Below are positions 4,874 through 54,049 of a DNA stretch of 64,000 nucleotides, in pieces (the stretch's first letter is position 1; every line of letters starts with the position of its first letter). Below the pieces are notes generated by a model. That model saw nothing but the letters and a program-made list of their open reading frames with translations. It was not told where the DNA came from and searched no databases. The translations under genes were made by a program, and so were the position numbers. This DNA is from Endomicrobiales bacterium (GTDB lineage: Bacteria > Elusimicrobiota > Endomicrobiia > Endomicrobiales > JALOBY01): the NCBI GenBank assembly GCA_963796955.1, contig CAWCNJ010000003.1, positions 1 through 64,000 on the forward strand, read 5' to 3'.

Positions 4874-4980
4874 ATACTGTTGCCCCCGACGCTTACATGT
4901 ACACCGTAGTTATATTATATTTCGAATCTTTCCACAATAATAACACTTCAAAATATTTCAAAGTATGATATAATCCAGTT

Positions 4981-26321: not shown

Positions 26322-26361
26322 ACTGCTAGACTTACCGCAGATAAAACAAGGAGAAGACACT

Positions 26362-31869: not shown

Positions 31870-31919
31870 TACACAATTAACATTTTCTTTATCAGGAACA
31901 CACGGTGCCCTTGTATACT
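31865..31919 (+). promoter_or_regulatory. Pho-box-like array and -10 element upstream of the acyltransferase pair
   Basis: CTTAAT (31865), ATTAAC (31876), CTTTAT (31887) at 11-bp spacing; TATACT at 31914-31919. Confidence 0.6.
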
Positions 31920-31949
31920 TTACGATATACAAGGGCACCGTGTGTTTTT
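31897..31949 (+). terminator. Perfect 21-bp inverted repeat with U tract; likely pst-phoU terminator
   Basis: AACACACGGTGCCCTTGTATA (31897-31917), 8-nt loop, TATACAAGGGCACCGTGTGTT (31926-31946), then TTT. Confidence 0.75.
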
Positions 31950-31966: not shown

Positions 31967-32812
31967 ATGTCAGCAGCTATCATGTACAGGCCGTGGAACC
32001 CGGGGATCGAAGGAAATATGCGCGGGATGCTTATGTTCCCATTCCGTATGACCATCAAGGGATTCAGGAAAAAAATGTCCGTATTCATAGAGAGGAATAA
32101 CTACATCGTCAAAACGATCGATGATGCCTTCGAGCTCGAACAGGCTCTTTCCCTGCGCTATAGGGTCTTTTACGGGGAAATGCTGGATAAGCGCAGGATC
32201 GTTCCGTTGGATATGGACAAGCACGATATGCACTGCGACCATCTCGCGGTGATAGATAAACGCAGCAATGAAGTGGTAGGCACCTACCGGTTGAACCTGT
32301 CATCATTCGGCAGACCGTTCTACTCGGCAGGAGAGTTCGAGATGGATAATATAATCCGCCTGCCCGGAAGAAAGCTTGAATTGGGACGCGCCTGTATCAG
32401 TCGGGAACACAGGAACGGTGTTACCATCTCATTGTTGTGGCGCGGGATAAAGGCCTATATGGCGGCTGCCGGAGCGGATTGGGCGTTCGGCTGCTCCAGC
32501 GTTAAAGCGGCGCGCTATGAGGATGTCAGGCCGCTGCATGACGCGCTGCTTCTGACCTATTACGCAGGTGATAAATACCGGGTCAGCCCGCGAAAGAAAT
32601 ATACATTTAACGACATCACAGCCGATCGAGCCGGTAGCGTCGCGCCGGAGAGCACTGCTGCGGTACCATCTTTGCTAAACGCCTACCTGAAGGGCGGTGC
32701 GCGCATAGCTGGGGATCCGGCCTTTGATAAAATGTTCAAATGCGCAGATTTTTTTACCCTGATCAGGACAAGGGATATGACCGGTGCAATGGGGAGGGAA
32801 ACGGTATCATGA
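31967..32812 (+). CDS. GNAT-fold N-acyltransferase, OlsB-like (lyso-ornithine lipid synthase family)
   Basis: LRYRVF, DKHDMHCDHL, VVGTYRL, FYSAGEF, LELGRACI, LLWRGI, FGCSS, PSLLNAYL, DFF. Confidence 0.8.
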   Translation: MSAAIMYRPWNPGIEGNMRGMLMFPFRMTIKGFRKKMSVFIERNNYIVKTIDDAFELEQALSLRYRVFYGEMLDKRRIVPLDMDKHDMHCDHLAVIDKRSNEVVGTYRLNLSSFGRPFYSAGEFEMDNIIRLPGRKLELGRACISREHRNGVTISLLWRGIKAYMAAAGADWAFGCSSVKAARYEDVRPLHDALLLTYYAGDKYRVSPRKKYTFNDITADRAGSVAPESTAAVPSLLNAYLKGGARIAGDPAFDKMFKCADFFTLIRTRDMTGAMGRETVS

Positions 32813-33579
32813 AAACCATAATACGCTGTATTGCAACATTGTTCATTTTGTCTGAATTCACTATAGCGGCGGCGTTCGGCGTCTTTATAACGGACAAGAT
32901 CGAAAAGCGGCGTTATGCCGCCCGGATAACGTCATGGTATGCCAGAAAATTACTGTCAGTGCTGCATATCCATGTGCGACTGGAGAACCGCAAACAATTT
33001 TATACCTTACCGTCCAGATGCCTGGTATATGCCAACCATCTGTCTTATCTGGATATCCTGGCGATAGCTGCCAGTATCCCCTGTATCTTTGTCACTTCGC
33101 TGGACGTCGGCGCCACCGGAATAATCGGTATCTTGTCTCGTATGGCAGGGGCGGTTTTTATCGAAAGACGCCGCGCACAGTCGCTGCGCAGGGAAGTCCC
33201 TATGTTGCAGGAATTGTTGAGCGAGGCGGGGCGGATCACCATATTTCCGGAAGGCACATCTTCCGACGGCAGCGGTGTTTTACCGTTCAAGGCCTCGTTC
33301 GCCCAGGCGGCGGTGAATGCCAGGGTGCCGCTCGTGCCGGTCCGGATATCATATTCGAAATATAACGGGTCCGCCCTTAAAAGGGACAATGCCGACCGCC
33401 TGTTGTGGTATGGCGACATGACCTTTGTTGATCATCTTTTGCACCTTTGTACCATCAAATCCGCGGTCATAAGCCTGCGGGTACTGGAAACCGTTTCTCC
33501 CGCCTCGGGTGTCGATCGTAAAACAATAACCGCCGAAGCGTACTCTAAAATAGCATCCGCATATACTCCAATAGTCTGA
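32809..33579 (+). CDS. PlsC-family lysolipid acyltransferase, OlsA-like
   Basis: NHLSYLD (HX4D), FIER, FPEGTSS, PFK, WYGDMTF; ATGA overlap with the upstream gene. Confidence 0.85.
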   Translation: MKTIIRCIATLFILSEFTIAAAFGVFITDKIEKRRYAARITSWYARKLLSVLHIHVRLENRKQFYTLPSRCLVYANHLSYLDILAIAASIPCIFVTSLDVGATGIIGILSRMAGAVFIERRRAQSLRREVPMLQELLSEAGRITIFPEGTSSDGSGVLPFKASFAQAAVNARVPLVPVRISYSKYNGSALKRDNADRLLWYGDMTFVDHLLHLCTIKSAVISLRVLETVSPASGVDRKTITAEAYSKIASAYTPIV

Positions 33580-33593
33580 AAATAGTCGCTACT

Positions 33594-36500
33594 ATGGCAT
33601 CCCTTAACCTGCAAAAATCCATCGCCGTCGTAACGCTCGGCGCCTATCTGTTCTCCTTTATCCTGTGCGAGCCGCTGAAAGCCGCCGGGATCTTATTCGA
33701 GAACTGCAGCATTTCCGCCCGGCTTACCAGGGCGCTGGGGAGCGAGCTGCTGCCTCAGGAGTTCGGTAAGATAACCGCTTCACGTCTTTTCGGGCGCGAT
33801 ACCCTGGTCGTCTGCATTCAGGACCTGCATTGTAACCCATACGTACAAAAAAATATCTATAATATCATCAGCCATTTTGCGCGGCGCTACGGCGTCTCGG
33901 CGATATTCTCCGAAGGCGCTCCCCAGGGCAGGGTCAATACCCGGCTTATGACCTCTGTGCCCGACGATGGTATCCGGGCCGATCTCTTAAGCGGGCTGTT
34001 GCGCAACGGCCTGATATCCGGCGCGGAATACTATGCGGTCTCACAGAACAAAGATATCTTATACGGACTTGAAGATTGGAACGTTTATTCGGAGAATCTT
34101 TCAAGGATACATTCCATTATAGAACGGCAGAGCAGGTACCGGGTCCAGGCGGAACAGGTGCACGGCTGGATCAGCGCTCTGAAAGAAAAGTACTTGTCCA
34201 GGCGGATCCGGGACTACGAAGACCGCGTAATAAGCAGCCGGGAAAACGGCGGACAGGCATTGTATAACGAGCTTGAGAAGCTGAGCGCCGAAAGCGGTCA
34301 GTCCCTGCGCGATTACCCTCACCTTGACAGATATCTGAGGCTGCGGCGGTGTAGAGCCGGCATAAACAGCGGCAAGATCGCTGAAGAACAGCGGTCATAT
34401 TTGAATGAATTGGCCCGCCAGGTGCCGTTCTCAGTATATCAAGAACTCACCGGTAAGACTGCCGACGGCAACGCATCCGGTGAATATTATTCCGCACTGG
34501 CGGAATTGTCAAGGCTCTATGCTCCGTCCATCCATTTGTCAGCGTATCCGAACCTGAGCAGATATCTGGAACAGGTGCGGCTGATGGATGCGATAAATCC
34601 GGTAGCGCTGCTCTACGAACAAAAAGACTTCCTGCGCAAAGCGCTTGAAAAGAACGCGAACACCCTCAGGGACCGCGAAATGTTGTTCCTCTCGGAAATG
34701 GATCCCTACCTCAAAGATTTCTATCTTCTTCATATAGACCCGCTGGATTATGAGTTCTTCAAAGCGCACTATCCGCAATTCAAGGCGGTAATGAAGAAGT
34801 ACGTTGCCGATCCCGGATTCGACGAGGTCTTTTCCGACCTCGGTTCCGGCGAGGCTGAGTTGTTCAAATTTTACGATGTGAACAAAGAGCGTAACAAGAT
34901 ATTCTTTAACGCGGTTAAAGCACAGGCGGGGATAGTAAATGCACCCGTGATCCCTGCGACACCGGAGCAGATGGCGGGCTGCGAAAACCTGGGCCGGTTC
35001 AAAAACATTTTTATCGTTGTGGTCGGCGGCTTTCACGGTGAGCTGGCCCAGTTGTTCAACAGCGCGGGGATCTCCAATATTACGGTAACTCCCTCAGTGG
35101 CGGACGGCGGCGGTTCAGGTGTGTATTTTGGCATGCTCGACGGCAGCCTTGATCCGGTGCGGTTTATAAATGCGTGTTTCGCACCGGTGTTGCTGGATGT
35201 CGGCATGCCGCGGGCTATGGTGGATATCGTGATCTGTAATTGGGCGAGAAAAGCGGAAGAAAAGCAGCTCTCAACAACAGAGATGCAGGATGATCTGAAC
35301 GGTTGGCTGCAAGCCAATAACCTGCCCGGTGATGTTTCTATAGCGGCTTCGAGCAGTCCGGGTATCCTCTATGTTTCTACCCGTGGAAAAAACTACACCG
35401 TTGATATCAAGGGTCTGACCGCAAAAAGATCCGCCAATCAGAGGATGAAAGAGCGGGTTTTCAGCAAATACGGGGGGGAAGAAGCCGTAAGAGCTTCGCT
35501 TCAGGCGCAGGGCGCCGATGTTGAGGCCTTGCTGGGCACCGGTACGGACTGGGGTTTGGTGTATGGAAAACTGGAGCAGTTAAATCAGGCGGGATACACG
35601 GAAAAAACCTATGGTGAAGAAGTTGAATCGATCAACCTCGGAGAACTCTGGCGTTCAATAAAAAGCGGTCTTATCAAAGAAAATAAATTAAATGTACGTT
35701 CATCCGCCGCGGTTGTGTTCTATATGGCGTCCGGCCGGTTCGCTCTGCATTTGTTCAGGAGTTTCTATATTCGCCATCCGGGCAGCGCCCTGCGCTATCA
35801 CTGGCGCGGCAGGAACAAAGAGGTTTACATTCCAGCGCAGCTGATCTCCAGAGCGGTTGTTGACCAGCTGCGCGACCAGCAGCGCCTGAAAGCGGGCATG
35901 GCGGGAAAACTTCGTATCTTCATACGGCGCTTTTTCGTCGTCGTGCGCCCCTTCCTTGAGATAACACTGATCTCGGCGCACCTCAGGTTCCTTAAAGAAC
36001 GCTCCTCTCTTTTCTTTGTCACGACCATTATTACCGGCAGTATTCTTTCGCTGGTTGCCGCCAACCCGCTGGTTTGGCTGCCGCTACTGGCGGTGGTGTA
36101 TGTTTACGCGGTGGTAAAATGGGCGCCGGAAAAAGGCGAAAAGAACGGTCTGCTGAGCGCCCGGGGATGGCACCTGGTAAGGATGACGGCTATACCCGCC
36201 GTTTTGCTCGGACTTTTTCTCATTTCGCTGTGCGCCGGGACTCCGTTTCTGGGTATGAATCTGCTCGGGCTGCTGCCGAAAGCCGCGGCACAGATGCAAT
36301 CAGCGGTCATTCTCGGAACGCTCTATAAAGGATTTGCGGTCCAGGCGATACTCAGCCCGCTGATCACGGTTTTTGTAAGAAGCTTCGTACGAGCGACCCG
36401 TGAGGCCACGTATCGCGCCCTGGGCAGCAGGTCGTTCAATTTACGGTTGGAGAGCTATTATCGCGAGACGGTCGGGAAAGATGGAAAGATCGTTTCCACA

Positions 36501-39500
36501 AATTATATTCCTGCCTCGGCGGTCAGCAACGGAGATATCGGCAATAAGAAGCTGGTCAAGGTGCGCGGCTTTGTCGGTATAGATCAAAAATTCGTTCCAT
36601 GGGTATGGGACGGCGCCACGATGATAGCGTATCTGGAGGCGCAGAAGTCGAGGGGGGCCATTTCTCCAGAAGTACAAAGCGTTATCGCCTCTATTCTGGC
36701 GCACGACGGAAAAAAATGGTTCGGGTACCACCGGCTGCTTCGCGCGAACGCTGTCCAAAGAGAGCAGATCAGCCTCCTAGCGGGGGATGCAATAACAACC
36801 CTGCCGCAAAACATATCCGACACCGAGATAGACCTGACGATCAAAGAGGCACGGCTGGCCGCGCGAAGGGATGTTTTCGGCAACGCGTATTTCTGGAAGA
36901 GGCTTCCCTCGGCGTGGTTCAGTATGTGGTTCGTTAATACCGAAATAGCGGTCGTCTTAAAACAGTTGAAACTCTTCGACTGGATCATTTCAAAATGTGT
37001 CTCGATCTTCCATAAGAACACCATACATTTTATAGAGCAGCTCGGGCAGCTGGTAGAAGGCGCGAACAGCGAACATCCGGTCGCGGCGGAAGGCCTGCGT
37101 CTGTACGGGCCCGACGACCTGCTTGGCAAATTCGCCGGCTCCGGCGGTTTGCTCGGCTCTTTTGCGAACCTGGTGACATTCATCAACGGTACGATCAACC
37201 GCATTCCGCACGTCGGCGGTGTTTTTTCAGCGTTGAGTGACGTGCCCGCGCTGATAAGCGCCCTGCTGGGAGTGCGCGGAGCGGCCCAACCTGCGCTTGG
37301 GAAAGATGGTGCAACGCAGTTGGGCGCTGAAGCGTTGCCGCTGCATACCGTACAGAAAGCTGTTGAACCGAATAAATTCGGACAAGAACCAGGAATACCT
37401 GCTGCGATCGATAAAAAATTCCTTCCAGGCGGCAGGGGACCGGTGGTACCGCGAACAAGCGCCGAACCGCCGCAGACGGGGCACGCGGCTGTGATGCCAT
37501 CGGACGATACCGGCATGCCGGAGGTAACCGTTCCTCAGAAAAATGAAGGAGCCACCCTGCCCGCGGCTCCGGCCGGCGAATACAGGTTGGACCGTTATGG
37601 CGCATTTGTGACACCGGAATTCGCTGCCTACGCCAATATCGATATGATCAGGCAAAACAGCACGCTGCATTTGCACTACAATGACAGCCCGGCAAGCGGC
37701 CGGAGCGCACTTAACTTAAACGCGCAATATGACCCTGCTTCGAACAGGCGGTTCATACCGTCGGTTTCCGTTGACCGCCTGACGCAGCCGTATAGTGAAT
37801 TTCCGACAGCGGAAATGACGATGAGCGAAGGATCTTACACTTCCTACAAGCTCAGTAGCCGGGGCAGCCTGCTTAACGATAAACTCCTCTACAGCGCCGA
37901 CCTGTTCACATCCGACAAAGATAAGTATCCCTCTGCCGGTGAAACGGTTGCGACCACGAAAAATAAGTTCCTGCCTAAAGTCGCGCTCAGGTATAGTGAC
38001 CCGGAGTCCGGCGCCGATGTGAACGCCGCCGCCTACAATCTTCTCGATACCGGCAAAAAGATCTCAGTTTCAGGCAGCCGGTCTATCCCGGTCTCCAGCA
38101 ACCTTACTCTGGCCCCCTGGGCCGATCTTTCCTATTATCCGGACAGAAAGAATACCGCGAAAGACCGGTACACGGGCAATTATGGCCTTGTCTCGCGGCT
38201 TTCGGATGTTTCCGCAAGCGCGGCAGTTAAGACCACGCAGAATAGAACGGCGCTTGCTGCCGACGATATCCGCTATTATAAGATCTTCCGGGAGGGCTGG
38301 GGAACCGTAAGCGCCGGCGCCAGGAACATCGCCGCATCGCTGCTTGAGCCCCGCAATGCGGCCGCGCCGCGCGAGTTTTACGCCGATATACGGAACAGCA
38401 AACTCGCCGGCCTGAGTGTCGGTAAAGGTGATGTAAATTTTTCTTATTCTGACACGCCGCAACGGCTTAAGCTGGATTACGCGCTGTATATGCCCGCGGT
38501 TTCAGAAACCTTAAAAGTGGTGAACCTGGGTGCGGATATCAGCAGGAATGCTGCAGCCGACAGTACCGTGTGGGCCGGCGCCGCCTGGAATAATTTTGGG
38601 TTCAGGTATAAACAAAGCCTTGGAACTTTTACTAAACCCGGTAAACTTTCCGCCGCGGGTGAAGTTTTTGTGCTTCCAGGCAAAAATCTTGCCGTCTCAG
38701 CCGGTGCCATGGTGAAGGACGGGGCAGGCGCGCGCCTCACCTCCGGCATCGAGATCAACCGATCTACCCAAAAGATGGATTATTCCGTTATACTGAACGC
38801 GAGTGCCGGCAGCAGCGCCGGTTCACGGCCCGATATGTCCGCTGCATTAGGTTTTGTCCTGCGTTTTGGGAGCGAAAGGCCGCATTCCTCCGGCGGCGCC
38901 GCACCGGTGTGGAACAGCACGCGGGATCAGGCCCGGGAGATGGTCAAGAGCGTTGACAGGACATTGAACAACCTGTATAAGACCGCGGACAAAAATGTCG
39001 AAAGAACGATCGAAAGCGACAATGATTTTATCGCCGCCTACGGGGACATACGGGAAGCGGCCGGCGCTCAAAAGAGCACTTTGGAAAATATCATAGCCAA
39101 GGCTTCGAACAGTGTCGGCAAAGACTACTTGACGGCGCGGGAATACCTGGATACCCTGCACAAGGCGCTGTTGTTGAGCCGCGACACCCTTATGGGCGAT
39201 CTGCTCGGCCTGCCGCCCGATTTTAAATTCGGCGACCCGCGGCCTCATTTTCAGAAATACGAAGGCATTCTGCTGGCTCTTGCCGGATCTATAAACACAG
39301 GATCGGGATATTTTAACTCACTTGAAGCCCAGGGCAGAATGAAGGTGAAGAAAAATACGGTCAGCGAGAAAGAGTATGCCGAGGATATCATAGAGGCCGC
39401 GAACGCGGTTGCCGACACGGTGCGCCGCGAGGAGATATTATCGTTATTGAAGCGCTTTATTAAAAATAAAGCAGGCTGGGAACATGAATTCCAGAACCTT

Positions 39501-42500
39501 GATGAAGCCTCCCAGGCAAAGAATGAAGAAGCCGGTATTAAGCCGAAGGTTGAGAAGGAGCGGGGCCGCCTGTTCGGTCCGGCGGATATCGACAAAAAAG
39601 AAACAGCCGCGTATGGTCAGCTGGCGGCCGATGCCCACCGGGACGCCGACATCAAAGAGCTGCTGGCCGCTAAAACAGAGATCAAAAAAATATTTGAAGA
39701 AAACCCGAAGTTACGCGGCGAACTTGTGCCGCCGGCACAGGGCAGCGAAATGTTCAAGAGCATGTTCGCCCAGTTCGTGGAACAAAAGCGTTTCAGCGAA
39801 CAGAGCGCTGTCGAGGTTGAGCGGGCGCAGCTGATACAGGAATTCAACAACACATACCCGGAATGGAAGCTGGCGTATTATGCACGGCAGCTGGTAACAC
39901 GCTACCATCTGGCCGTAAAAGACGACGGCGGAGCGGATACCACCGCCGTCTGGGACCGCACGCTGAAGTCCGTCAAAGACGAATTGGATCTCGGCAGGGC
40001 GGTTATGGTTTTCAAATACCGCGTGAGCGACAAGCTCGGCGGCGCGCTCAGGACTTTCGGCGAGTGCCTGGGTGTGCAGAGAGCGGTCTTCGAAGTTGAG
40101 GCGGTGCGCGACGTTAAAGGCAGGGTAACCGAGCTTACCGCATTCTCGGATCAGGGCCGGGCATTGTTCAAGATAATGAACGACCAGACGACGCCTTCCC
40201 TGGAATTGTTTGATTACCGGCTTGCGGCGGCGGACGGCGGCGCAGGCGCGTACCGCTCACGATCGTATGAATTCAGGATCGATGACGGCGCGCTCGGCGA
40301 GGCGCTCCTTGGGCAGCCGGCGGCCCTGGCGCGCGACTCCATAGGACTTTTGCTCGGAGAAAAAGTGTACGCGGTAGAGCGCAGGGGCGATTCCTGGCTG
40401 CGGCCCATCGATGTACGCGGTGTGAAGTTCCTGCCGGGACACAGACCTGTGCGTTTTGGAGAGGAATACCGTCGGGATGAGCGTGATAAGGGCTTCGAAG
40501 AAGAATTCGTAAGGAACGAGAATCCGGACGGAACGTACACGAAGCATTTTACGAAAGCCGGTTTGACCGATCGTGATGAGACCTGCCGGTGGACACTGGA
40601 GAGCGAAATGCCCGTCAGAACGGTGTTCGCTTCTTCCGAGTACGGCCTTCCCCTGGAAGAAGTGTTCGAGGGCCGCAACAATATGAAGAGCCGTGTGTAC
40701 CTGCGCGATACAGAGACCGGCGTCCGCAAAGACGCGGTTTATGAGAACACCTATGCCTACGATTCAAGGAATTACGCCAGGTTCCTGAAAACGAAGCTCA
40801 ACAAGGTCACCGGTGTCCGTGAGGAATGGAAGGAAACCGGCGATGCCTCTGTGGTCGTGTTCGAAGGCAGGGTCACGACCGCGAAGGGCTTGGTGCTCAG
40901 CACAAAACGGACCACGCAAAAACGAAACAGTCCGGCGCGTATCGAGACCAGCCGGGACATGAACGGGTTACGAGATGTTACGATAGTTAATACGCTCACC
41001 GGCCGCGAGAAGATCGACCGCTATGATGTGCAGGGAAACAGTATCTACACCGAAACCTCAAGCGCGGGTGAGAATGCGTATGTCCGCGCCTTCACGCGGA
41101 CGTACGCCGATAAACAGCCGGCGGAAAGCGGCTTCCTCAATCTGCGCACGAGGGAAGCGAGCCGGGCGTCACAGGGCTCAAAACATGCGCCGATCGTAAA
41201 GATTTCGCTGGGGAAGGTCGATGCAGATACCATGCGACAGCGCTCTGTCCGCGAAGATGCGCTGGAAGGCACGGTCACGGTCGCCAGCATGAACGTCCTT
41301 ACCGGCGCCGAAAGCTCTGTGACCTATCCGGCCTCTGACAAAACAAGGACCAAACCGCTATACCGCTCCGATACAACGGCGCTGGACTACGACACGATGA
41401 AAAAAACAACCACGACCGTTAAACACGGCCCGGACGGCGGGATCGAGTGGAAAAAAACAGCTGAAACCAGCCTTGCGGGCAGCGCGTTGATAAATCTTGG
41501 CGGACACGTTGGTAAAAGCGTCCACACGGTGGAAACAAAGCGCGACGGCGACGGCAGAGTACTGGAGATCAACGCCGTTTCCGACAAAGGGTTGAAGTTG
41601 TTCTCGATCGTCAACAACGATGTCTTACCGGTGATAGAACTGTTCGATCATACCAATACCGCGGGCGGGGAAACCGCGCATTCGGTGATCTACGAGTTCA
41701 GGGATCCGGCTTTGGCTCAGGGCTCGGTTGAAGGGATCACCTATCGCTCTATCGGGAAAATGACCGGGAAGAAGTCGTACCGTATGGAAAGCCTCAACGG
41801 CGCGATGAAGCTGATCGATGCGGGAGGGATCATATTTCTTCCCGGCCACCGGGCTATAGCATACGGTGAGCCGTACCGGCAGTCCGGTAACGACAGGAAT
41901 TTTGAGGAGACCTTCACACGTAAGGAAAATGCTGACGGAACATCGACCAAAACCTATTTTAAGGCCGGCCTTCTCGACAGAACTGAGGTCAGCCTGTGGC
42001 GGCAGGACGACGGGCTGCCGCTGCGGACGATCTATACTGCGACCGAGCTCGGGGTGCCGCTGGTAGAGCTCTTTGAAGGCATGGATGGTCTGACGAGCAA
42101 AACATATTTGTTCGACGAAAAAACGGGACGCAGGGCCGAAGATCCGGTGTACGAAAACACCTACACGTGGGACTTGAGAACCCATCGGCGCATACTGGAG
42201 AAAAGAGCTCATCTGGTCACCGGACTGCGCGAAGAATGGCGGGATGTCAGTCCTGACACAGCCCATATCGTTTTTGAGAACACCACAACCACGGCTGAAG
42301 GGAAGCTGGTAACGAAAAGATCCGCCGCACAGTTGCTGCACAGTTATGACCGCACAGAAACAAAAGAAGAGCCGAACGGGACAAAGGAGGTAACGGTCCT
42401 TAACACCCTGACCGGCGAAAGGAAAACCGATAAATACGATTTTAAGGGCCGTCCATTTTACACCGAGATCGAACGGTGCGGCGCGAACGCCTCTATGCGT

Positions 42501-45500
42501 TCATTCGTGAGGACCTACGCCGATAAAAGGCCGACGGAAATAGGCTGGCTTAACCTGCGAAGCAGGGAATCGGGGCTGACGGTCTTCGATCATCTGGGCA
42601 AACCGTCGCTGGAAACGAGGGTTGGCCCGGTAAACAGTCTTTCTATGAAACAACCATACACGCGAAAAGATACAGGAGAACGTATCAATACCATCGGCGA
42701 GACCGAACTGCTGACAGGGGCTGAAACCTCCAGATCATTTTCCGCAGATGATGTTAAAATGAAACTGCCGCTGTATGCACAAACTGTATCGGCGCTGGAT
42801 TACGCGACGATGATGAGGACCAGTAAAAAGATCAAGTACCGCGAGGATGATGAAGGCAGACTGCTGGGGCTTGCGGAGTGGAGCGAGGATGGTTTGATCA
42901 ACACCCTCTACGGCGCCGGTAATTTCACCAAGCGGTTGGCCGATGGCAGGGTCATGTCCGAGGTGGTGGGGCTCGATGAACACGACAGGCCCCTGACCGA
43001 TGCGTCCGGGAACTATTACAGTAAGAGCGATGATAAACTATTGCGGCAAATGGAGACAACGACGTATAACAGCGACTTTTCGCCCAGAGAAAGCGTTAAG
43101 ACGACCTACCCTGGAAAATTCATTGAGAAAATGAAGTTCAATGTGCGCGCTCCGAATGGTTCCCTGGAGAATCGCACGGAGTCGGTGACGGGGGACGAGG
43201 TTGTAGAACAACTGGACCGGTTTTCCGGTTCTACCCGGGTAAAAGAGGTGTATTTCAACGGACAGCGGACTTCAAGAACCGAATACGGCTTCAAGATCGA
43301 TACGCACGGCAAACGATATTTTTCCGCGTTCAAGGTAAACGACCTGCTGGACACTGAACAGGAAGATTCCTCCGGATCACATCGTGCCGGTTACATTCGC
43401 CGGAGCACAACCCGGAATAAAGGCACTAAAGAAGTTATATCTGTCGTCAATTCGAACGACGGCCTGTCTTCCACCGGGTATAACTACGATACGAAGGAAC
43501 CCGCCGTTATGCAGGCGCTTTACGTTAACGGGCCGGTCGTATCCCGGATCGTTTACGCACCCGCTTCACGCCTCACGGATCATGTGGGTGAAACGGTAAG
43601 CAACGAGATCTACTGGATAAATGACGACGGCAGTGTAACCGTTACTGTGGAATTGCTCAAGTCCAGGACGAGCCTTACCAGCCGGTATGATTATTACGGC
43701 GGTGTGTTGCGGGAATCAATGGAGGAAGGACGCGACGGTTTCGCGCTCTATAAGAAGATCCGGCAAAACGTCTCGGGCACTGAATATCTGACAGAGCGCT
43801 ACAACGGAGTTATGGAAAACTCTACCCTGGAGCACCCGGGCGGGGCCGTCGTAAAGGTTTCTGCCAGGGACAAAGACGGCACCGCCATTTTCACCATGGC
43901 AAACAGCGGCGGAATAGATACGTATAATTATGCTAACGGCGACGTTACCAGGCAGACACTGAAATACCGGGGCGGCCCGATGGTTAAAACTGCGACAGTA
44001 ACCCCATCCGGCAGGGAACGGAGCAGGGGGGTGGTGGAATATAATGAAAATGGTAATCGCTGGGAGCTGCGTCTGGAATATCCGGGATCTAGAAGCAAAC
44101 ACTTTGAAGTTAAAGAGATGGCACGGCGTGATGGGCCTGTTACAAACGATACGGTCCTATCCTCCGACAAAACCGTTGTCCTCACCACCGCATATGCCTT
44201 TAACGGATCCGACGGGAAAATCCATCGGATATCGCATTACTACGGTGACCAGGTAGCCGGCAACGAAATAAAAACGGAAGACTATGAGCTTTTGTTCATG
44301 AACGGCCAGCCGGCCCAGGGTGTCGGGGCGGCCACGATCACCGAATACCGTTATTCGCCCGGCGATGGAGCGGTCCCGCCAAGGAATGATGCGGTAACCT
44401 ATTCAGTCGATATTTCTTATCCGGCAAATAACTATACCGTAAGGGAAGAATCGGTTTTCAGGCTAGAGGGCGGCAGACGTATGCCCGATCGCGACAGTGT
44501 GCGGAAAATGAGACTTATCGCCGGAGAATGGAGGCCGGTATACACCGAAGGAAGATATATGAATTGGCTGCTGCCGTCTTACGGCACGCTGGTCTCTTCA
44601 TACGAATATGATGAAACAGGCAGCGGGCTTTTACGGGAAACCTCCAGCGACTTTGTCGATCCTTCCCATGCGCCGTTCACCCTGAGGAACAAAAACGAAA
44701 AATTAGCTGCGTTCTCTTCACTGAACAGTGACGTGCCTGAGCAAAAGAAAATACTAGAAGACGTGGACAGAGTTCTGGCGGAAATAGCCGGGTTGACAGA
44801 TAAGGGGAACGGCAACACCGCGGCGACCCGTGTGAGGATACCGCGGGACGATCTGTTCATAGGTCTGGTCTACGAGTCTTCATTGGATAAAGACGGCCGT
44901 GCGGTTCCCGGAAAATACCTTGGCATGAATCTGTATCTTAACGACGCTTCCGACATGCGCCTGGTCGCGTCCGAAGAAAAGAACGTGGTCACTACCGAAC
45001 GCCGGATAAACGTTGTCTATGAGCTGGATGACGGCAAAAAAGCGGTGCATGGCTATACCAGAGGTACTTCAGGTCTTATCGGCTCTGTTAATATCGGCCT
45101 GGATTATCCGGTCTACTTCAAGCTTGAAGGCCCGTCAAAAAACGAGCTCGTGAGACTTAACAGGGCCCCATTGTACCAAGGCAAGGATGAGGTAAAAGGT
45201 AACGAAGTGGAAGAACTCTACCCGCTGGGCTCACAGGGATTGTCCCTGTTCAAGGCCTATGATCCGGTAATGGGAAATATATATGAAACGAAAGATATAG
45301 CAACGACTGCCTCGGGCGCGTTCACCTACAAGAAAGGGCCGCTTAAAACCACGATGATCTATCGTTCTGCCAGAGAAGGAAAGGCCGTTCTGCCGCACTA
45401 CTACATAGAACCGGTCAGTTCGCTCATGAAGATCCTGCTGATCCTCGCAACGGCTTTTTATTTCCCGTACCGGTTTATAAAAAATTTGCGTAACCACAAG

Positions 45501-48500
45501 ACCGGTGCTGTGGCGCCGCCTGAACAAGTAAGGGAAACGACCGACGGCAGTAACGGGAACGGGAATGGGAACGGCGATATCTCTGACCCGTTCAGCCGTG
45601 TGAAAGATCTGCTTACCGAATGGGAAGACATGCTACAGCACGTTAAAGATCTTCCTGCAGCCGGCCGTCAGCGCTGGAGCGAAGACTGTCTCAACCGGGC
45701 GATGCTGGTCATTAACCTTACACCGTTCAAGATAAGTGATTCACCGGCGGGCCTGGTGAGCCTCAATGAGATATATAACAGGATGTATACCTTGTCGCTG
45801 GAAACGCTGCGCTCGATCCAGTCTTCCGGGAAGAACAGCACGGGAAATGAAGAAGAGAAACTGGTGCAGCTGAATCTTGTCTCCGCCGAATTCGGCGATA
45901 TCGCCCGCTACAGCGCCAACTTCGTGAACCTGACCTCTTCGATCGATAATCTGCTGTTACTATCAGGGTACATGCTGCCCAAAAACAGTTTCCTTGAAAG
46001 AACCCTTCCGTTCACACGGCTTTCCATTATGAACCTGACCCGATTCGTCTACGGGCTCCGTTTCGGTTTTACCGCCTCTTCACGGCTGACGAAGGAAAGT
46101 ATTCGTAACCTGGTCAGGCTGGGGAACAAAATAGACCCCGGCTTGTATGAAAATCCGGCGCGTACCGTTTCGACCGCGGACGATTACACCGATTCTATCG
46201 CCTTCAGGGGCAACGGCGCCGCGTTCGGCATCAGGCAGTTCTGGAAACCACGCAGAGCCCTCCCGCGGGTCATGGGCTTGTTCATGATAACCTCTATCGT
46301 GTGCTCTTTCGCCTTCCTGAATGCCGGGATATCCCTGGATTTCCTGCGTTCATTTTTCTGCGGCGTCGGGTTGTCCGCAGGCGCCTCATGGTTCTTTGTT
46401 TTCAGGGGATTGAATGAAATGTATGAACATAAGATCACCCGCATCGATGAAGAACTAAAACATTACGCTGTGGACAATTATTCCGAAGAATTTCGCGATA
46501 TAGAACAGCGTTCTGCCTTCGAAGCGCGTGACCGCGAGCTCAAGGGTGAGTCTCCCGCCGCGAATGTGATCGTGGTCATGGCGAAAAACGGATCGTCCGG
46601 AAAATATAACGAGCTGGCCGCGCGATGGAAGAACAGTTTCGTACGGGGTGATGTGCCGGTAGCGGTAGTGCCGTACGAGGGTGAAGACGGCGACGCCTAC
46701 GCCGCCGCATTCCATTTTCTCGCTGATACCTATCCGGCGGTAAACCGGAACGGAACAGCGATGGTGCTGGTCACCGGCGCCGGGATCACCGATGATGAAC
46801 AGATGGAGTCGGTGCTGATGAACGGGTATAAGGCTGCCCAGGCCTTCGCTCAGAAGGACAAAGACGGGAGCGGCCGGAAGATATTCATAAACACCGCTCT
46901 GCGCTACACCGGCCCGATAAAAAGCGGAGGCGAGATAACGCTGGTGGGCTCCTGGGCGAACTACGATCAGGTGGAAGCCGAGAACCTGAACCTGGTGCTT
47001 TCGGCCCGGGACGGGGGAGCGCGCAAGATCTATCACGATTTCAAAATGGTGGATATCGTCGATAAGCTGGAACGGCAGGCACTGACGTCGGTCTTTGACA
47101 GAACGAATGCGAAAAAACGCCAAATGCCGGTCCTCTCCGGGATCACGTTATTCAATTTCGGCGATCAGCAGAAAGAACGTGATTTTGTGGCGTTGCTGGA
47201 GCAGGCCCCGAAGGGTTTTAGTGTTACGAAAGATGTGTTCAACCCGCTTATCTTATTCAAGAACGAAGGCGTCGATGAGATGTACAAGTCGCTGATCTCC
47301 CGCAACATTCCCGCGAACGGACGGGGCCGCATGTTCGCTCTTTTCAACCAATATGTTAACCGTTATGGACGTAATGGAAAAGTGCCGTTCAATTTCAAGG
47401 TGTACCTGCCCCATCTGCATGAAACCTATTTGGAAGGCACTGCTGACGATGGTCCCGTTTTACCGGAGCCGCCTTTGAAGACACCGGAACCCTTGAGAAG
47501 GACACCCCGTGAAGGGCTCGCGGCCGCCGAAGGCGGAGTAAGTGATAACGGCGAACTCGCGACGCCGCTGGAAAGAGCGGCACAATCACTGGACGAATGG
47601 GAACGTCTGCTCAGGGACAGGAACGGTACATTCGCAGAGCAGGATGCTGTCAGGGTGCTGAACCTGGTGAAAAATATCGTCAATCTCACGGTATTTAAAC
47701 CGAAAACAGCCGTGATTAACCGGGTGGCACTTCATGCCGTTTACGTGAGGTTTGCAACGCTGTCGATGCGAACCATACGGACGCTTAAAGGACGGTACGA
47801 CGCTATTTCAGCAAGTGACGAACTAAGCCGTGAGAAGTTCCGGCTGCTGATCTCCGAGTTTGCGCCGATCGCGAAATACGGGACGGCTTTCGCCGGGACC
47901 ACGGGCGCCATTGATGATCTTGAACTGATGTCCGGGTATGTCTTACCCGAGAAAAGCCTGTATGAAAGATCCGGTGCGCTGCGCTTCATGCGATTTTGGT
48001 TCGGCTTTGAATACGGCCTGATCGAGTCCGTGTTCCGTGTGAAAAATCGTGCCCGCGAACTGGTAAAACTTGGTAATGCCATAGAACCCGATCTGTATCA
48101 GGATCCCGGACGTCTTATTGAAGAAGTTGACGGTTACACGAATGCCGCCGAAAAGCAAAAAAAGAACGAGGCAATCGGCATCAGTAAGAATTGGAAACTC
48201 AGAAAGGTCTGGCCGAGGACCGTCGGGCTGCTGGTGTTCCTGTATTCCATTTTTGACATCGCGTTGTTCAGGACGGGCATACCGGTAAGTTTTCTTGTTT
48301 CTGTCATTATGTTCGGTATGTGCTCGGTCGGCGTGTCATGGTACTTCATTTTGAGGGGCCTTGACGATGGATACGCATCTTCGATGAGGAATGTTGACAA
48401 GGAGATAAACGGCCTGGCGACAGAGGGGTATGCTCAGAGGCTGTTGTCCCGTGAGCGTGATGCGGCCTCCGGTGCGCTGCTCATGGAAATGAAAAGCGAA

Positions 48501-51500
48501 AAACCGCTCACCGATATAGTCCTTATCATGGCTGAACCCGACAAGGTTGAAAAATATCAAAAACTATTGTTATCGTTAACAGGTTCGTTAATAAGAAAAG
48601 ATATTACCTCGATAGTGCTGCCTTTTGAAGGAAGGGACGGCGCGGCATACGCAGCGGCATTCCACTATCTGGCCGAGAAATTTCCGGGCCTGAACCGGAC
48701 CGGGCGCTCGTTGGTGCTGGTTACCGGCAGTAACCCCGGCGATTATGACAATATCGCAGGCTGCCTGACGAACGGCTATAAGGCCGCGCACGCACTTGCC
48801 GACGAAAAAGACGGCGGCGCCGGCGGCAAAATATTCATCGACGCAGGGCTTAATTATGTGGGGCCGGTCAAGCGGCACGGGGAAATCACGATGGTAGGTT
48901 CGTGGGCCGGCTTTGACCAGGTCCTTGACGAGTCCATGAAGATCGTCCTTTCCGACAACGAGGGGCGGGCGTTGAAGTTGTATCCTGATATACGGGAAGG
49001 AATACAGGATAAACTCGGGCGTCACTTTTTATACGATAAGAACAATACGAAGAAAAGGCAGATCCCGGTACTCGGCGGGATCACGCTTTCAAATTCGATT
49101 CGGCCGAAAAGGAGGCGCAATTTGTAAAACTCCTTGACGGTGGGCCTCCGGGCTTTAGTATCGCGAGGGACATCATGAGCCCGCTCATCCTGCATAAACG
49201 AGAAGGGCGCCGCCGAGATGTTCAAATCTCTCATGCCCAGGAACATCGTCGCGAATAAAACAAAACGTGACCTCCATTTCGGTCTTTTTGACGACTATGT
49301 CAGGCTGTATGGAGGGGGGTCCCGTATGCCTTTTGAATTCTGTGTTTATATGCCCCATCTCAACGAAACATATATTACCAGGGGCGCCCTGAATGATATA
49401 GCCGCTTTGACCGGTTCGGCACAGGCTCCGCTGTCAGCGGCCGGTTATGTAAGTTTCTTGGCTGCGCAGATCGCGATGCCTGAAGCGCGCCCCGAGTTGG
49501 ACGGCATGAGCGTAATGGCGGTATCGTATACCGCCACAAAAGGATTTGAGGATGAGCTCAGTGCACTCTCGCAGTTGGGCAAAGGCGGGCTGGGCGTAAC
49601 CATGCGCGGGCGCACTACCGGAACGAAAGGAGATCTCATCACTATCGGCAGAATAGTCGTGCCGGTCGACGGAGCAAGCGTCAATGTAACCGTCCATGCC
49701 GAAATAGTACGCGACGGGACCGGTAAGCAACAGGGGATGCTGTTCCTTGACCCCGATAAAAAACAGATGACGCCTGAGGCGCAAAAGATAGCCGACCTGG
49801 TCCTCTCCGAAAATATAGAAGCCAGCGGATCGCAGGAACAGGCCGCGATGGCGCTGCTTGGACGGGGAGCGCTTTCTCTTATCAGAGAATTAAAAGATGG
49901 AAGGATGGAGTTCAGGAAGGCCCTGGTAGCAGCCGGGCTACCCGCTGAATCTCTTGACCCGGGGGTTATCCTGCTCAACGGCGTTGAGGCCGCTTTTACG
50001 CTGCCGAACGTGCTGAAAGATGAATATACCGACGATGGCTATCTTAATTCACTCGTGTATCCGTTCATTACCGATGATCTGGAAGCCGGAGTTCAGCCCT
50101 TTTCGGAGCTGCTTCAGCGTTCGCTCAATCCCCGGCTGAACAGATATTCCGTTGTTGACGACGCAAGGAAATACGTTGACCTGATGAAGGCCGCACTGCT
50201 GTGTTCGGACACGGTCCTGGCTGTTGCACAAGACAGCGGTCCCGGGACAGGAGTATCCAGATTACAGGCGCTGAGGGACGTGATACATGTTCTTCCAAAA
50301 GAACGTTTGAACGCTGAACTGGGCAGTGTTCTTAATGAATACCTGGCGCATATATGGGGCAGGGAATATGCGCAAAAACGTGCTCAGTACGGTACATTGC
50401 ATTCCCCTGCGACGGGTCTGAGCACGTTCGATGCTTCCGGTATAACTCCTTCAGTACGGGTTGGCACCTTCAGCGAGATCCCGGCGATCGCCCGACGATT
50501 TTCAGATGCCGGCATCAATGTCGTGGTCCTGCCCGGATGCCTAGGCGGGCCGGACGAGCCCGACATAAGCCGTATAGATCTGCCTGAGGAGGCTGGACGG
50601 CTTGGAATGGCCGCGGAAGAGATAGATATGATCAGTAACATTTTACCCGATGAAAATGATGATATCAGGGACAGTGACGGTTTACTGGAGAACCAGTTCT
50701 ACATTGGTTTTGAACTGTATCATGCGATGACCGAAAACCCTGAACAAAACAGCCAGTATCGTAACTTTGCCGGCACGGCTGGCTGGTGGCCGCAGGTTAA
50801 ACAACGCGCGCGGCTGCTCGCGTTCCAGCGAATGAACGGAGCGCCGCCGGCCGACGCTGTGTCCATCGGTCAATGGGAGGCGAAACTGGACGGCGAAGGG
50901 CGAATGAAGTTTGCAATGTACGCCGCCACGTATGAATATATGCAGTATGTCGCATTTCAGCAGTTGAAAAACGCCTTGAGCGCCATACACAGAAATGAAC
51001 GCGGAATGAAGGTTTTTACCGAACAGGATACGTCTGATGAGAATAGTGTAACGTGGATAAAAATGCTCGGTTTCGACGGCGGAAAACAACGCCCGCTTAT
51101 GAGCGTCTCATCGGCTGATGAACTGACGGGCCAGAGAATGGGCGAGGAATCGGATCCCGGTGGAAAATTATGGGTCGCGATACGCGGGGATGTTTGCAGG
51201 ACGGAGGGCTTGTTAACCTCATGCCTGACCAAAATCGCGGAATCAGGAATGAGGCCCCGCGTCAGCTTCGACATAAGCTCAGCCGATGTGCTCAGCGTCA
51301 ATACGCCGGGCGTCCTGGATATCGTCGCGTTCCTGAAGTCAATACCCCTCCCGGCGGCGGCATCCGTTGACGGTGAAAGGGCATTCAGCGACGGTTTTGC
51401 CCGCGGCAGGGCGATGCCGGTACCGGACGACGGGCTCCAGTTAATTGTGGACGGTGCGGACAAAATACAAAAGGCCATCGATACGCCGCCAAATAATGAG

Positions 51501-51791
51501 CAGTACATTTCCGCTGTCTGCGATATTCTCGCCGGGGCGGGGCTCTCCGCAAACGTCATGCCCGCGGCCTGGAACGATATCAGGGCTATGAGCCTGAGGG
51601 CAAAGTTGTGCCGCACCGGCAATGATCTGCTGACTATGAACGATGAGTTACGGGGCTACCTGCATGGCTATTTTGAAAATGCCAGGGAACAATTCAACCT
51701 TCTCCAAAGCAGTTCGAGGATACACCGGGAGCATGATGTGCTGACCACGCCGCTCTCGGAGTCTATAATTGCTATACTGACCAATGGATAA
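33594..51791 (+). CDS. Giant multidomain membrane protein of about 6065 aa (ORFs 33594-49127 and 49218-51791 joined across two compensating indels)
   Basis: A 15.5 kb uninterrupted ORF plus a same-frame 857-aa ORF. The intervening alternate-frame peptide aligns with the first copy of an internal repeat. Confidence 0.85.
40086..42900 (+). repeat. Intragenic tandem duplication, period 1434 nt (478 aa), beta-rich
   Basis: FLPGHR, KAGLxDRxE, VYENTY, VTGxREEW, NTLTG, RTYADK and ALDYxTM each occur twice in the same order; copies start near 40086 and 41520. Confidence 0.92.
45580..49378 (+). repeat. Intragenic duplication of a module of about 620 aa (helical domain, TM hairpin, alpha/beta domain)
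   Basis: SGYxLP, LVxLGNxIxPxLY, AYAAAFHxLA, NGYKAA, GEITxVGSWA and YxPHLxETY occur in both copies (about 45580-47430 and 47560-49378). Confidence 0.92.
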
Positions 51792-51802: not shown

Positions 51803-51857
51803 GTTCATACTGCCTTAACTCTGAGTTAATACAGTCTTGATAATGCATTGGTATAAT
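51803..51857 (+). promoter_or_regulatory. Pho-box-like array and -10 element upstream of the second ppk1
   Basis: GTTCAT (51803), CTTAAC (51814), GTTAAT (51825), CTTGAT (51836) at 11-bp spacing; TG-G-TATAAT with TATAAT at 51852-51857. Confidence 0.75.
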
Positions 51858-51863
51858 AGCGCC

Positions 51864-54035: not shown

Positions 54036-54049
54036 TTAAAGGATACCGG

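Follow-up and report, generated by a model that had tools for sequence, protein, structure and literature searches.

The window analysed here, which is the whole stretch of 64,000 nucleotides from an Endomicrobiales genome (G000), contains an 18.2 kb coding stretch that is read as a single + strand gene of 6,065 codons (~6,065 residues). With moderate confidence, its product is regarded as one conserved giant of an expanded head family, built as a multi-pass scaffold with probably non-catalytic modules. On sequence comparison the gene is real and conserved; its family carries no assigned function, and the readings of its role given below are those that we infer. No Pfam or NCBIfam model matches any part of the giant gene. 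An earlier note, drawn from the letters of the window, had singled it out as the best candidate for an undescribed system, and the product is indeed large, conserved, and without a named family, with membrane helices mixed with soluble domains and a glucan-enzyme-like end.

The claim of one 18.2 kb gene holds as far as the long open frame from 33594 on the + strand is concerned, but not in the standard call, as table 11 gives two ORFs (5177 aa and 857 aa). The stretch is divided as follows.

33594..49127, + strand: ORF1 (P0001), 5177 aa, running from the head through the membrane module and the middle region to module B (all of copy 1 and most of copy 2)
49087..49208, + strand: out-of-frame stretch of about 118-119 nt, from a 1-nt loss to a 1-nt gain
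49218..51791, + strand: ORF2 (P0002), 857 aa, in the frame of ORF1, with the end of module B copy 2 and the GH77-like relic

The 1-nt loss lies in the T-run 49087-49089 and the 1-nt gain at gggc 49205-49208. Between them, translation of 49088-49207 in frame +2 supplies what module B copy 2 lacks, and the frame +2 piece 49082-49210 matches copy 1; the stop at 49125-49127 is found in the shifted frame only. In the G000 assembly, rpoB is split over six or more frame pieces and rpoC over 2, while rpoB is whole in G004 and G005, and the window also holds broken pstS, pstC, and porin genes. Because the same assembly breaks rpoB, rpoC, and pstC, the two indels that split the giant gene are probably assembly errors and the gene is probably one 6,065-codon unit. 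The apparent two-gene structure and several "pseudogenes" of the window thus probably trace back to assembly quality.

A collinear ortholog is present in another family of the same order. The ortholog in G003 is collinear with 49, 57, 41, and 46% identity across four aligned blocks, and in G005 a single frame of 4,515 aa covers the modules and the C-domain. Each of the three orthologs is disrupted: the gene here by two indels, that of G003 by one frameshift, and that of G005, a genome with intact rpoB, by an in-frame TAA. The body of the subfamily follows a widespread plan of head, repeated B modules, GH77-like domain, and then GDE_C. Compared with shorter members such as the 3,676-aa G004:C23, this lineage and the two orthologs have ~3,400 extra residues, made up of the conserved membrane module, the Pro-rich linker, the candidate barrel-like domain, and then a long region of putatively helical and of duplicated sequence. 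G003 is thus the homologue with the same domain order that had been sought, collinear at 41-57% identity, and the segments do not map to a known adhesin or S-layer family, the outcome that the earlier note had named against itself. Since G003 shares the domain order and no adhesin or S-layer family matches, neither of these grounds dismisses the gene. In contrast, the framing of that note around Omnitrophota and predatory lifestyles is not directly applicable, as the named relatives are Elusimicrobiota (Endomicrobia/Endomicrobiales).

The N-terminal part of the protein consists of a hydrophobic anchor and a conserved alpha/beta domain of ~550 aa, both of which the earlier note had seen, the latter at roughly 500 aa.

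33609..33677, + strand: N-terminal hydrophobic helix, signal-anchor-like, aa 6-28, in 7/7 paralogs, followed by a conserved (E/D)PL motif
33741..35342, + strand: head domain, aa 50-583, with an alpha/beta core and a ~275-aa helical insert

The head has no Pfam or NCBIfam family, a profile of 7 heads gives 0 matches against the PDB at E <= 10, and Foldseek with the head model gives no match at E <= 0.001. In its structural model, the head would have a TIKI/erythromycin-esterase/ChaN-like fold, with conserved His and Glu residues. With the TIKI/erythromycin esterase/ChaN/TraB-PrgY superfamily (ChaN 2g5g, EreC 6xcq, Bcr135, HopBA1 5t09, RRSP) it has in common an acidic-x-His motif, a Glu 28 residues on, and a second His in G-x-x-H, and its predicted alpha/beta core may have the parallel sheet of that superfamily. 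The conserved residues are D77-x-H79, E107, E160, R171, and G478-G-x-H481. Of 92 rows in the alignment, 86 reach the E107 column and 85 of these have the Glu; G-G-x-H481 is found in 84 of 84. Q76, D77, and H79 belonged to the search pattern. The H79-E107 spacing of 28 equals that of His-85/Glu-113 in Bcr135 and His-3902/Glu-3930 in RRSP (PMC6254334); the 2His/2Glu catalytic motif with its His-Glu pair, as given there, is recognisable in the head sequence. The head is probably catalytic. It differs from the superfamily in its ~275-aa helical insert, in having Asp instead of Glu as the first acidic residue, in lacking a sequence-level Pfam or PDB match, and in its position, which is always N-terminal in giant proteins and behind a hydrophobic helix; its activity is only predicted.

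By sequence, the giant gene belongs to a heavily expanded, phylum-wide family in which a hydrophobic helix and the head precede a variable body. Seven head-bearing giant ORFs in G000 take up ~87 kb, or ~4% of the 2.1 Mb genome. The head is present in 34 of 41 related genomes and in 83 of 301 genomes of the phylum, and one relative has 18 open head-family frames that sum to 122,474 aa, or ~11% of its 3.4 Mb genome. Genus g11, whose genomes are the smallest (1.0-1.3 Mb), is mostly without the family, which is found in 4/8 of its members in the 41-genome set and 13/44 in the 301-genome set. Head-led ORFs string together unrelated enzymes including kinases, which are eukaryote-like in the paralogs, FHA, cytidylate kinase, methyltransferase, HAD, and GGDEF domains; a PF02224 (cytidylate kinase) match at E <= 1e-10 occurs in just 7/41 related genomes. 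In two paralogs (1,048 aa and 3,487 aa), the N-terminal helix is the sole membrane helix, and methyltransferase, nucleotidyltransferase, and HAD domains are found in the longer. The membrane side of the head is ambiguous because these single-helix paralogs include one with domains that need cytoplasmic cofactors. The cofactor-dependent domains of the 3,487-aa paralog fit the signal-anchor reading poorly. The literature searched contains general giant-protein papers only and no description of the head family.

The block between the head and the repeated modules (aa 621-3962) has the following parts.

35454..37283, + strand: membrane module, aa 621-1230, 66% mean column identity in 3 sequences
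35916-36389 and 37212-37274, + strand: hydrophobic helices of the membrane module by hydropathy, aa 775-932 and aa 1207-1227
37284..37583, + strand: Pro-rich linker, aa 1231-1330, 15% Pro
37584..38753, + strand: candidate barrel-like domain, aa 1331-1720, kept in 3 orthologs and ending ...GFVLRF
38754..40037, + strand: region rich in helix-forming residues by composition, aa 1721-2148
40038..42956, + strand: tandem duplication of a ~490-aa unit, aa 2149-2640 and 2629-3121
42957..45413, + strand: non-repeat stretch of ~820 aa, aa 3122-3940, with no repeat detected and no family match
45423..45479, + strand: hydrophobic helix, aa 3944-3962, with a basic stretch next, also in G003 and G005

Several features that the earlier note had described are found here, namely the cluster of membrane helices (nt 35916-37274), the Pro-rich linker, and the membrane helix that it put at 45417-45476. 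A profile of the membrane module gives nothing or chance rows against the PDB. The candidate barrel has no Pfam match at aa 1331-1720, and its nearest named clusters in the language-model Atlas are all barrel families, at 0.84-0.87 and with low recognition. HMMER with the same residues against 1.84 billion representatives finds nothing beyond the query and one ortholog-like protein. Two of 3 orthologs share a G-x-x-hydrophobic-x-F ending (...GFVLRF in G000 and ...GVFRF in G005), which is internal and not C-terminal, and the G005 gene has its stop 44 codons past the barrel-like domain. The "1800 aa of repeats" reported earlier shrink to one tandem duplication and the ~820 aa without detected internal repeat. 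The two ~490-aa units match each other (aa 2149-2657 with 2629-3121) at E 3e-66 with 38-44% identity and have 62% mean column identity with the orthologs; no homologue of the unit was found among proteins of 862-2,460 aa, and its profile gives only noise against the PDB. An RHS/YD-shell was considered for aa 2149-3940 and rejected, as there is no RHS_repeat Pfam match, the 3 YD-like motifs in 1,792 aa are within the shuffle range, and the PDB rows are noise. Chou-Fasman secondary structure was discarded since it called the all-helical B-a region mostly strand.

The duplicated membrane module reported in the earlier note was recovered as two copies of ~650 aa, named module B, with 32-42% identity between aa 4002-4613 on one side and aa 4661-5177 plus ORF2 aa 1-53 on the other.

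45597..47543, + strand: module B copy 1, aa 4002-4650, with a helical bundle, a hairpin, and an NDP-sugar-pyrophosphorylase-like fold
46269-46403, + strand: membrane hairpin of copy 1, aa 4226-4270
46554-47456, + strand: NDP-sugar-pyrophosphorylase-like fold of copy 1, aa 4321-4621
47574..49376, + strand: module B copy 2, aa 4661-5177, the out-of-frame stretch, and ORF2 aa 1-53

Module B is present in 18/41 related genomes. Its AF2 model (pLDDT 74) has a predicted fold of the NDP-sugar pyrophosphorylase (NTP_transferase/FKP) type, and its identity to the FKP GDP-fucose pyrophosphorylase domain (9iis, 9iit), GMPPA/B, and AGPase/GlgC is only 8%. Sequence searches are negative: Pfam on 16 copies of the domain finds NTP_transferase/Fucokinase in 0/16 at E <= 1, with three unrelated chance rows, and the domain profile gives nothing or chance rows against the PDB. 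In contrast to NDP-sugar pyrophosphorylases, the domain forms one unit with a hairpin-bearing helical bundle, is tandemly repeated, and is without conserved charged residues of the kind that bind phosphate and metal. Its invariant residues are G, P, L, N, G, T, Q, G, Q, and G only, with no invariant Asp, Lys, or Arg among the 11-16 sequences on which this was judged. Both copies are without a 20-30 aa loop that is found in G003 and G005.

The glucan-enzyme-like C-terminus was also borne out, as the homologues of ORF2 carry Pfam Glyco_hydro_77 and GDE_C.

49515..51788, + strand: C-terminal domain, homologous to the GH77-like region of relatives, without ~110-150 core residues and without GDE_C

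The relatives score 39.8 bits (G003) and 53.9 bits (G004) with PF02446 (GH77) at a cut-off of 25, and GDE_C is found in the G003, G004, G005, and G008 relatives with E values from 5e-57 to 1e-63. ORF2 itself has no match to PF02446 at E <= 0.1, nor does any part of G000. It is without the alignment columns ~612-673 and 694-757, which are present in 5/8 sequences. GDE_C is absent from ORF2, which stops at 51791, and from the entire G000 assembly (81% complete). By its sequence, this C-terminus is a gutted relic of the GH77 and GDE_C (glycogen-debranching-type) end of the relatives. The relatives end in the same domain pair as glycogen debranching enzyme (4-alpha-glucanotransferase and GDE_C; 5d06, 7eim), and the G004 relative matches GDE chains at E 1.3e-3, whereas the giant gene has only the GH77-like relic. 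The GH77 nucleophile aligns, at weak significance (E 0.03), with a Ser of the family consensus "GFDGvkiSG". The aligned chain 3vge, which is presumably a nucleophile mutant of TreZ, reads "DGFRLSAV" where the consensus has Ser.

The phosphate-starvation region in which the gene had been placed was confirmed as a phosphate/polyphosphate neighbourhood.

31967..33579, + strand: upstream Acetyltransf_5 (GNAT) gene followed by an Acyltransferase gene that ends 14 nt before the giant gene
51837..54823, + strand: downstream PPK1 (second copy in the window) and CYTH-domain gene

Terminator-like hairpins are present only at 31898-31945 and 54955-54975 and frame a possible transcription unit, so the giant gene may be co-transcribed with the lipid-remodelling and polyphosphate genes. 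The Acetyltransf_5/Acyltransferase pair also adjoins the G003 ortholog, where it is divergent. No secretion-system genes lie beside the giant gene.

From these parts, we infer a topology. The membrane helices come from a Kyte-Doolittle scan, with flanking charges read by eye and not by a trained predictor; basic residues follow aa 932 and aa 3962 in the translation. The earlier note had found the helices and a barrel hard to fit into one conventional topology, whereas hydropathy and flanking charges suggest a consistent multi-pass model. The giant would be a multi-pass inner-membrane protein with ~2,700 residues (aa 1228-3943) outside the cytoplasm, and the last 2,100 residues would lie inside the cytoplasm, tethered at the membrane by two hairpins. 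Both ends of an outer-membrane barrel are in the periplasm, and for this reason an internal barrel is topologically allowed. The sugar-nucleotide-like and glucan-enzyme-like parts would bind rather than convert their ligands, binding being likelier because catalytic features are lost from these parts in this genome. On this reading, the protein would be a scaffold anchored in the envelope, coupling a part exposed at the surface to carbohydrate-binding modules in the cytoplasm. A precedent for such an envelope-spanning chain is given by PelB, BcsC, and PgaA, which are single chains with a periplasm-spanning part and an outer-membrane barrel, PelB also having an inner-membrane helix. In contrast to these export scaffolds, the giant has no TPR or porin family match and no identified synthase partner, and its barrel is only a candidate.

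An unlikely alternative is a processed polyprotein, in which the head or a host protease cuts the precursor into membrane, envelope, and cytoplasmic proteins and the barrel-like piece could reach the outer membrane by itself. The head keeps the His and Glu of active TIKI/Ere hydrolases and leads ORFs of unrelated enzymes, and the barrel-like domain ends in a beta-signal-like manner in G000 and in G005, the latter followed so closely by its stop. The same idea has been proposed for N-terminal peptidase domains of Omnitrophota giants (10.1101/2023.11.21.568195). A TIKI fold does not imply a protease, since esterases and the haem-binding ChaN have it as well. Neither a cleavage site nor a recurring linker motif nor any sign of fragments was found, the E..FxxxH..HxxxN (CPBP-like) spacer motif has 0 matches in the giant gene and its 6 paralogs, and a single-chain topology is possible. 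The processing or action on another cell suggested by the earlier note is unsupported by the present results, and the hydrolase-type residues of the head make processing conceivable only.

It is improbable that the frameshifts are real and the gene is being lost, even though the gutted GH77-like end without core stretches, the lost GDE_C, and the shortened loops of both B copies would suit such decay. The stop at 49125 is present as sequenced, the orthologs are disrupted too, and nearby pst genes are broken. On the other hand, an 18.2 kb frame with just two mutually cancelling indels and no other stop is far from neutral decay, and 41-57% identity to G003 along the full length argues for constraint. 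Nor do the indels count as evidence of decay, given that breaks also run through the essential rpoB and rpoC of this assembly.

A giant that is exported to act on another cell as an effector or in a toxin-like way, with the head for trafficking or activation and the body as cargo, is very unlikely. Conserved heads with variable bodies recall polymorphic secreted proteins, the N-terminus is signal-anchor-like, and paralogs carry eukaryote-like kinases and FHA. TIKI-fold domains are found in MARTX and type III effectors, e.g. RRSP and HopBA1 (PMC6254334), and giant proteins of Elusimicrobia/Omnitrophota have been tied to host association (PMC11573180). However, at least 10 predicted membrane helices would hold the protein in the membrane of the producer, no secretion-system genes are adjacent, no toxin family matches, and g11 with its smallest genomes mostly lacks the head family. 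A conventional giant adhesin or S-layer-type surface protein, which the size and the tandem duplication in the long middle region might suggest, is highly improbable as no adhesin, Ig-like, cadherin, RHS, or sorting-domain family matches, YD-like motifs are unenriched, and cytoplasmic-type enzyme folds make up one third of the protein.

The giant-protein phenomenon is already known, and the Elusimicrobiota head family adds to it. As far as the accessible text of 10.1101/2023.11.21.568195 and 10.64898/2026.06.07.730766 goes, the Omnitrophota giants ("Archaeovorins" and others) resemble this gene as multi-thousand-residue ORFs in small genomes of uncultured bacteria, with an N-terminal export-like signal, many membrane helices, an unannotated N-terminal region, and divergent enzyme-like domains detectable by structure only. 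In contrast, the present gene belongs to the phylum Elusimicrobiota, encodes ~6,000 aa against >30,000, and has no SecA-DEAD, C39, or S8 domains by Pfam. The shared TIKI-like head is its defining feature, and no mention of one for Omnitrophota giants was found in those portions. "Archaeovorin"-type giants are defined by a SecA-DEAD-like domain and >30,000 aa (10.1101/2023.11.21.568195). An "Archaeovorin"-type assignment was rejected for a protein of 6,065 aa with no SecA family match.

The giant genes known from small genomes of uncultured bacteria are largely unexplained. It is quite doubtful that the head giants form an Elusimicrobiota polyprotein or "giant precursor" system, in which a TIKI-type head matures or activates the bodies (4-11% of the genome) and this member is a single-chain envelope-spanning machine. 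If true, the chain of the machine would run from inner-membrane helices through a Pro-rich spacer in the periplasm and a barrel in the outer membrane to a large domain in the periplasm or at the surface, and would end in cytoplasmic modules that bind sugar nucleotides and glucans; it would link events at the surface or the handling of polysaccharides to carbohydrate and polyphosphate storage under phosphate control. Enzyme-like domains within giants can be relics and not active enzymes, which calls for caution in metagenome-based metabolic reconstruction. Many Elusimicrobiota giants belong to a single family whose members share a probably catalytic head and carry interchangeable bodies, and a single domain to express, mutate, and localise provides a concrete handle on the giant-gene problem.

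Under translation table 11, the giant gene is present as two open reading frames:

33594-49127, + strand, ORF1, 5177 aa
49218-51791, + strand, ORF2, 857 aa

Both start coordinates are multiples of three and thus the two share a common frame. The second copy of a duplicated module of about 650 residues (the B module) stops matching after ...GGITL, near 49088, and downstream of this point frame +2 reads FKFDSAEKEAQFVKLL...PLILHKREG, a match to the first copy; a genome search also matched 49082-49210 in frame +2. The ORF1 frame is picked up again at AAEMFKSL. Such a pattern requires a one-base loss in the T-run at 49087-49089 together with a one-base gain at gggc 49205-49208, and the stop at 49125 lies in the shifted frame only. 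Since the B modules and the C-terminal domain stand within one frame in the related genome G005, and since the window's assembly (G000) is error-rich, 33594-51791 is probably one gene of 6,065 codons split by assembly errors. The single gene of the earlier note is two ORFs as sequenced, and is kept as one gene with probable assembly errors.

In the assembly, rpoB is broken into at least six frame pieces with numerous stops, and rpoC into two (G000:C5:37335-45303); rpoB is intact in G004 and G005. It has 11 contigs, yet its marker completeness is only 81%, an estimate that many indel errors probably lower as well. Three broken genes lie in the window:

26218-27156 and 27137-27700, phosphate porin, split across frames
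27730-28452, pstS, truncated and split across frames
28661-28846, 28870-29490 and 29111-29233, pieces of pstC, split across frames

Downstream of them, pstA, pstB and phoU look whole.

A hydropathy scan and internal comparison give the anatomy of the giant protein:

aa 6-28, 775-932 (three to five helices), 1207-1227, 3944-3962, 4226-4270 and 4878-4914, hydropathy peaks
aa 2149-2657 and 2629-3121, tandem duplication, each unit some 490 aa long
aa 4002-4613 and 4661 to the end, on into ORF2 aa 1-53, duplicated B module (about 650 aa)

The linker at aa 1231-1330 is 15% Pro. In the translation, basic stretches lie after aa 932 and aa 3962 and before aa 803, and the segment beyond aa 1227 is not basic. 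Under the proposed topology, aa 933-1206 would be inside and aa 1228-3943 outside; from aa 3963 onward the chain would be inside again, with two hairpins entering the membrane. The head (aa 50-583) would be outside provided that aa 775-793 really forms a helix. The giant protein may be an envelope-anchored scaffold with degenerate carbohydrate-type modules, a reading that has about an even chance. The earlier note found inner-membrane helices and an outer-membrane-like barrel hard to fit into one topology, and offered a processed polyprotein, or an effector or channel acting on another cell. The difficulty is not supported, as a consistent single-chain model can be proposed and a genuine outer-membrane barrel, with both its ends in the periplasm, could be accommodated in it too; a polyprotein is unlikely, though worth weighing.

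A search of 5.8 billion proteins for those of similar length returned only two giants, of 4,774 and 4,730 aa, both with GGDEF; they share with the giant protein only aa 8-583, and one is named Elusimicrobia RIFOXYA1_FULL_47_7. True orthologs, in G003 and G005, came from searches of whole genomes. The G003 ortholog, from another family of the same order, is collinear across all regions with identities of 49, 57, 41 and 46%, and contains two additional inserts. Its frameshift, at another site than in the window's copy, lies about 130 residues into the C-domain (L037, G003:C1, ~211479-211710). In G005 the contig is truncated, so that the ortholog has no start there; an in-frame TAA stands at nt 1297-1299 (L039, G005:C4), 44 codons past the barrel-like domain, in an assembly with intact rpoB. 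Matches to the parts are unevenly spread: the middle region, between the membrane module and the B modules, is matched in 5 of 41 related genomes, the B module in 18 and the C-domain in 12, and the membrane module (aa 621-1230) in 4 of 104 genomes of the order. The shorter relatives on G004:C23 (3,676 aa) and G008:C28 run from head through B modules to C-domain without the middle region, and the giant gene therefore looks like that subfamily carrying a further block of some 3,400 aa.

The C-terminus was called glucan-enzyme-like in the earlier note, and the kinship is borne out: homologues of ORF2 carry Glyco_hydro_77, which passes the cut-off in G003 and G004, as well as GDE_C (E 3e-27 to 1e-63), and the G004 protein has weak matches to glycogen debranching enzymes of solved structure. 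The window's own copy is gutted. ORF2 aligns to the GH77-like part and the subsequent linker with two core stretches missing and terminates upstream of any GDE_C; no match to GH77 or GDE_C was found anywhere in the assembly. The family profile has 'GFDGvkiSG' against 'DGFRLSAV' in region II of a trehalohydrolase chain (E 0.03, weak), and this weak alignment suggests a Ser nucleophile in the whole C-domain family; the trehalohydrolase chain with 'DGFRLSAV' is one we take to be a mutant. The window's C-domain reads as a relic. A decaying gene, of which this relic and the frame breaks would be signs, is improbable; the giant gene is real and conserved.

An AF2 model of the B module from 11 copies (pLDDT 74, pTM 0.74) has a helical domain at residues 1-316, with a hydrophobic hairpin at low confidence, and an alpha/beta domain at residues 320-620. 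The invariant residues are Gly, Pro, Leu, Asn, Thr and Gln only, Pfam pyrophosphorylase models matched none of the copies, and a loop of 20-30 aa in the G003 and G005 modules is absent from both window copies. The domain is probably not enzymatic, and we infer a binding or structural role. As a reading of the whole protein, an exported effector is quite improbable.

In the middle region, aa 1331-1720 are kept in the three orthologs, ending ...GFVLRF (G000), ...GVFRF (G005) and ...VLFHI (G003). HMMER against 1.84 billion representatives returned, besides the query, a single protein of 1,084 aa. In a protein atlas the top matches were hypothetical clusters, and the nearest named ones were all outer-membrane barrel families (0.84-0.87, low recognition). 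This segment is a candidate outer-membrane barrel, a lead and not a result. YD repeats were considered for the middle region and rejected, as neither a YD motif count nor a PDB profile search supported them. Across all pieces of the giant protein at E <= 0.1, Pfam and NCBIfam gave only two rows, both below threshold: 8xMP, which covers the hairpin, and MtrF. An adhesin is very hard to credit.

The giant gene starts 14 nt past an Acetyltransf_5/Acyltransferase pair, and its stop is followed after 45 nt by a second PPK1 and then a CYTH-domain gene. In the scanned stretches, strong hairpins of terminator type were confined to 31898-31945 and 54955-54975. The former, between phoU and the GNAT (Acetyltransf_5) gene, is the strongest such site scanned, with a perfect 20-bp stem followed by a T-run. 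The G003 ortholog likewise has the acyltransferase pair beside it, in divergent orientation, but not PPK1; a phosphate-control link is thus plausible in the window, yet not a conserved feature. Polyphosphate genes are unusually dense here: two PPK1 genes (19208-21250 and 51837-54035), Ppx, CHAD, an HD/Ppx-III fragment and the CYTH-domain gene (17667-23654 and 51837-54823) all lie within 37 kb around a Pho regulator and pst genes. On G004:C23, a Ppx/GppA gene (L040, 3-1205) stands directly upstream, on the opposite strand, of a shorter head-B-GH77-GDE_C giant, a second case of a polyphosphate gene adjoining this subfamily.

Six more ORFs of the assembly open with the same helix and domain of about 550 aa (1,048, 6,489, 2,608, 4,036, 5,117 and 3,487 aa), and their bodies carry APH, metallophosphatase, two protein kinases with FHA, cytidylate kinase, GT2, methyltransferase, GlnD-type nucleotidyltransferase and HAD domains. 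At Pfam level the assembly has a single cytidylate kinase, and it lies inside the 4,036-aa giant (G000:C6:23061-23726, in L004). Another genome, G012, has a stand-alone copy and a giant-embedded one, and PF02224 matches (E <= 1e-10) occur in only 7 of 41 related genomes.

PMC6254334 describes a 2His/2Glu catalytic motif, with His-85/Glu-113 in Bcr135 and Glu-3900, His-3902, Glu-3930 and His-4030 in RRSP. The head carries D77-x-H79, E107 (28 residues on, the spacing seen in those enzymes) and G-G-x-H481. In an alignment of 92 rows (7 own sequences and matches from 79 named loci), whose search pattern included the QDLH motif itself, E107 is kept in 85 of 86 covering rows, E160 in 84 of 86, R171 in 82 of 86 and H481 in 84 of 84. 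A putative TIKI/Ere-type hydrolase fold is the best reading of the head because one superfamily recurs together with the motif; by themselves the scores are middling.

Of 41 related genomes, 34 contain the head; a single genome can have as many as 37 matches, and the longest open frame reaches 12,656 aa. In a phylum-wide sample of 301 genomes, 83 have it. The seven head genes of the window's genome total about 28,900 aa (4.1% of the genome); G004 has 18 head-bearing open frames of 2,423-12,656 aa, summing to 122,474 aa or about 11% of its ~3.4 Mb genome. Named records come from Endomicrobia, Endomicrobiales, Endomicrobiaceae, Ruminimicrobiellum and Rifle 'Elusimicrobia'. Two head genes lie on a 2.5 kb contig labeled Nanoarchaeota (L045) and a 16 kb contig labeled Bacteroidota (L109), which are probably mis-binned since the other 77 loci are all Elusimicrobiota. 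Source databases annotate the proteins as 'hypothetical', a literature search found no description of a family defined by this head, and the family is apparently undescribed so far. Elusimicrobia are rich in huge proteins according to PMC11573180. Giant membrane proteins in small uncultured genomes are a phenomenon already known, and the giant gene falls within it.
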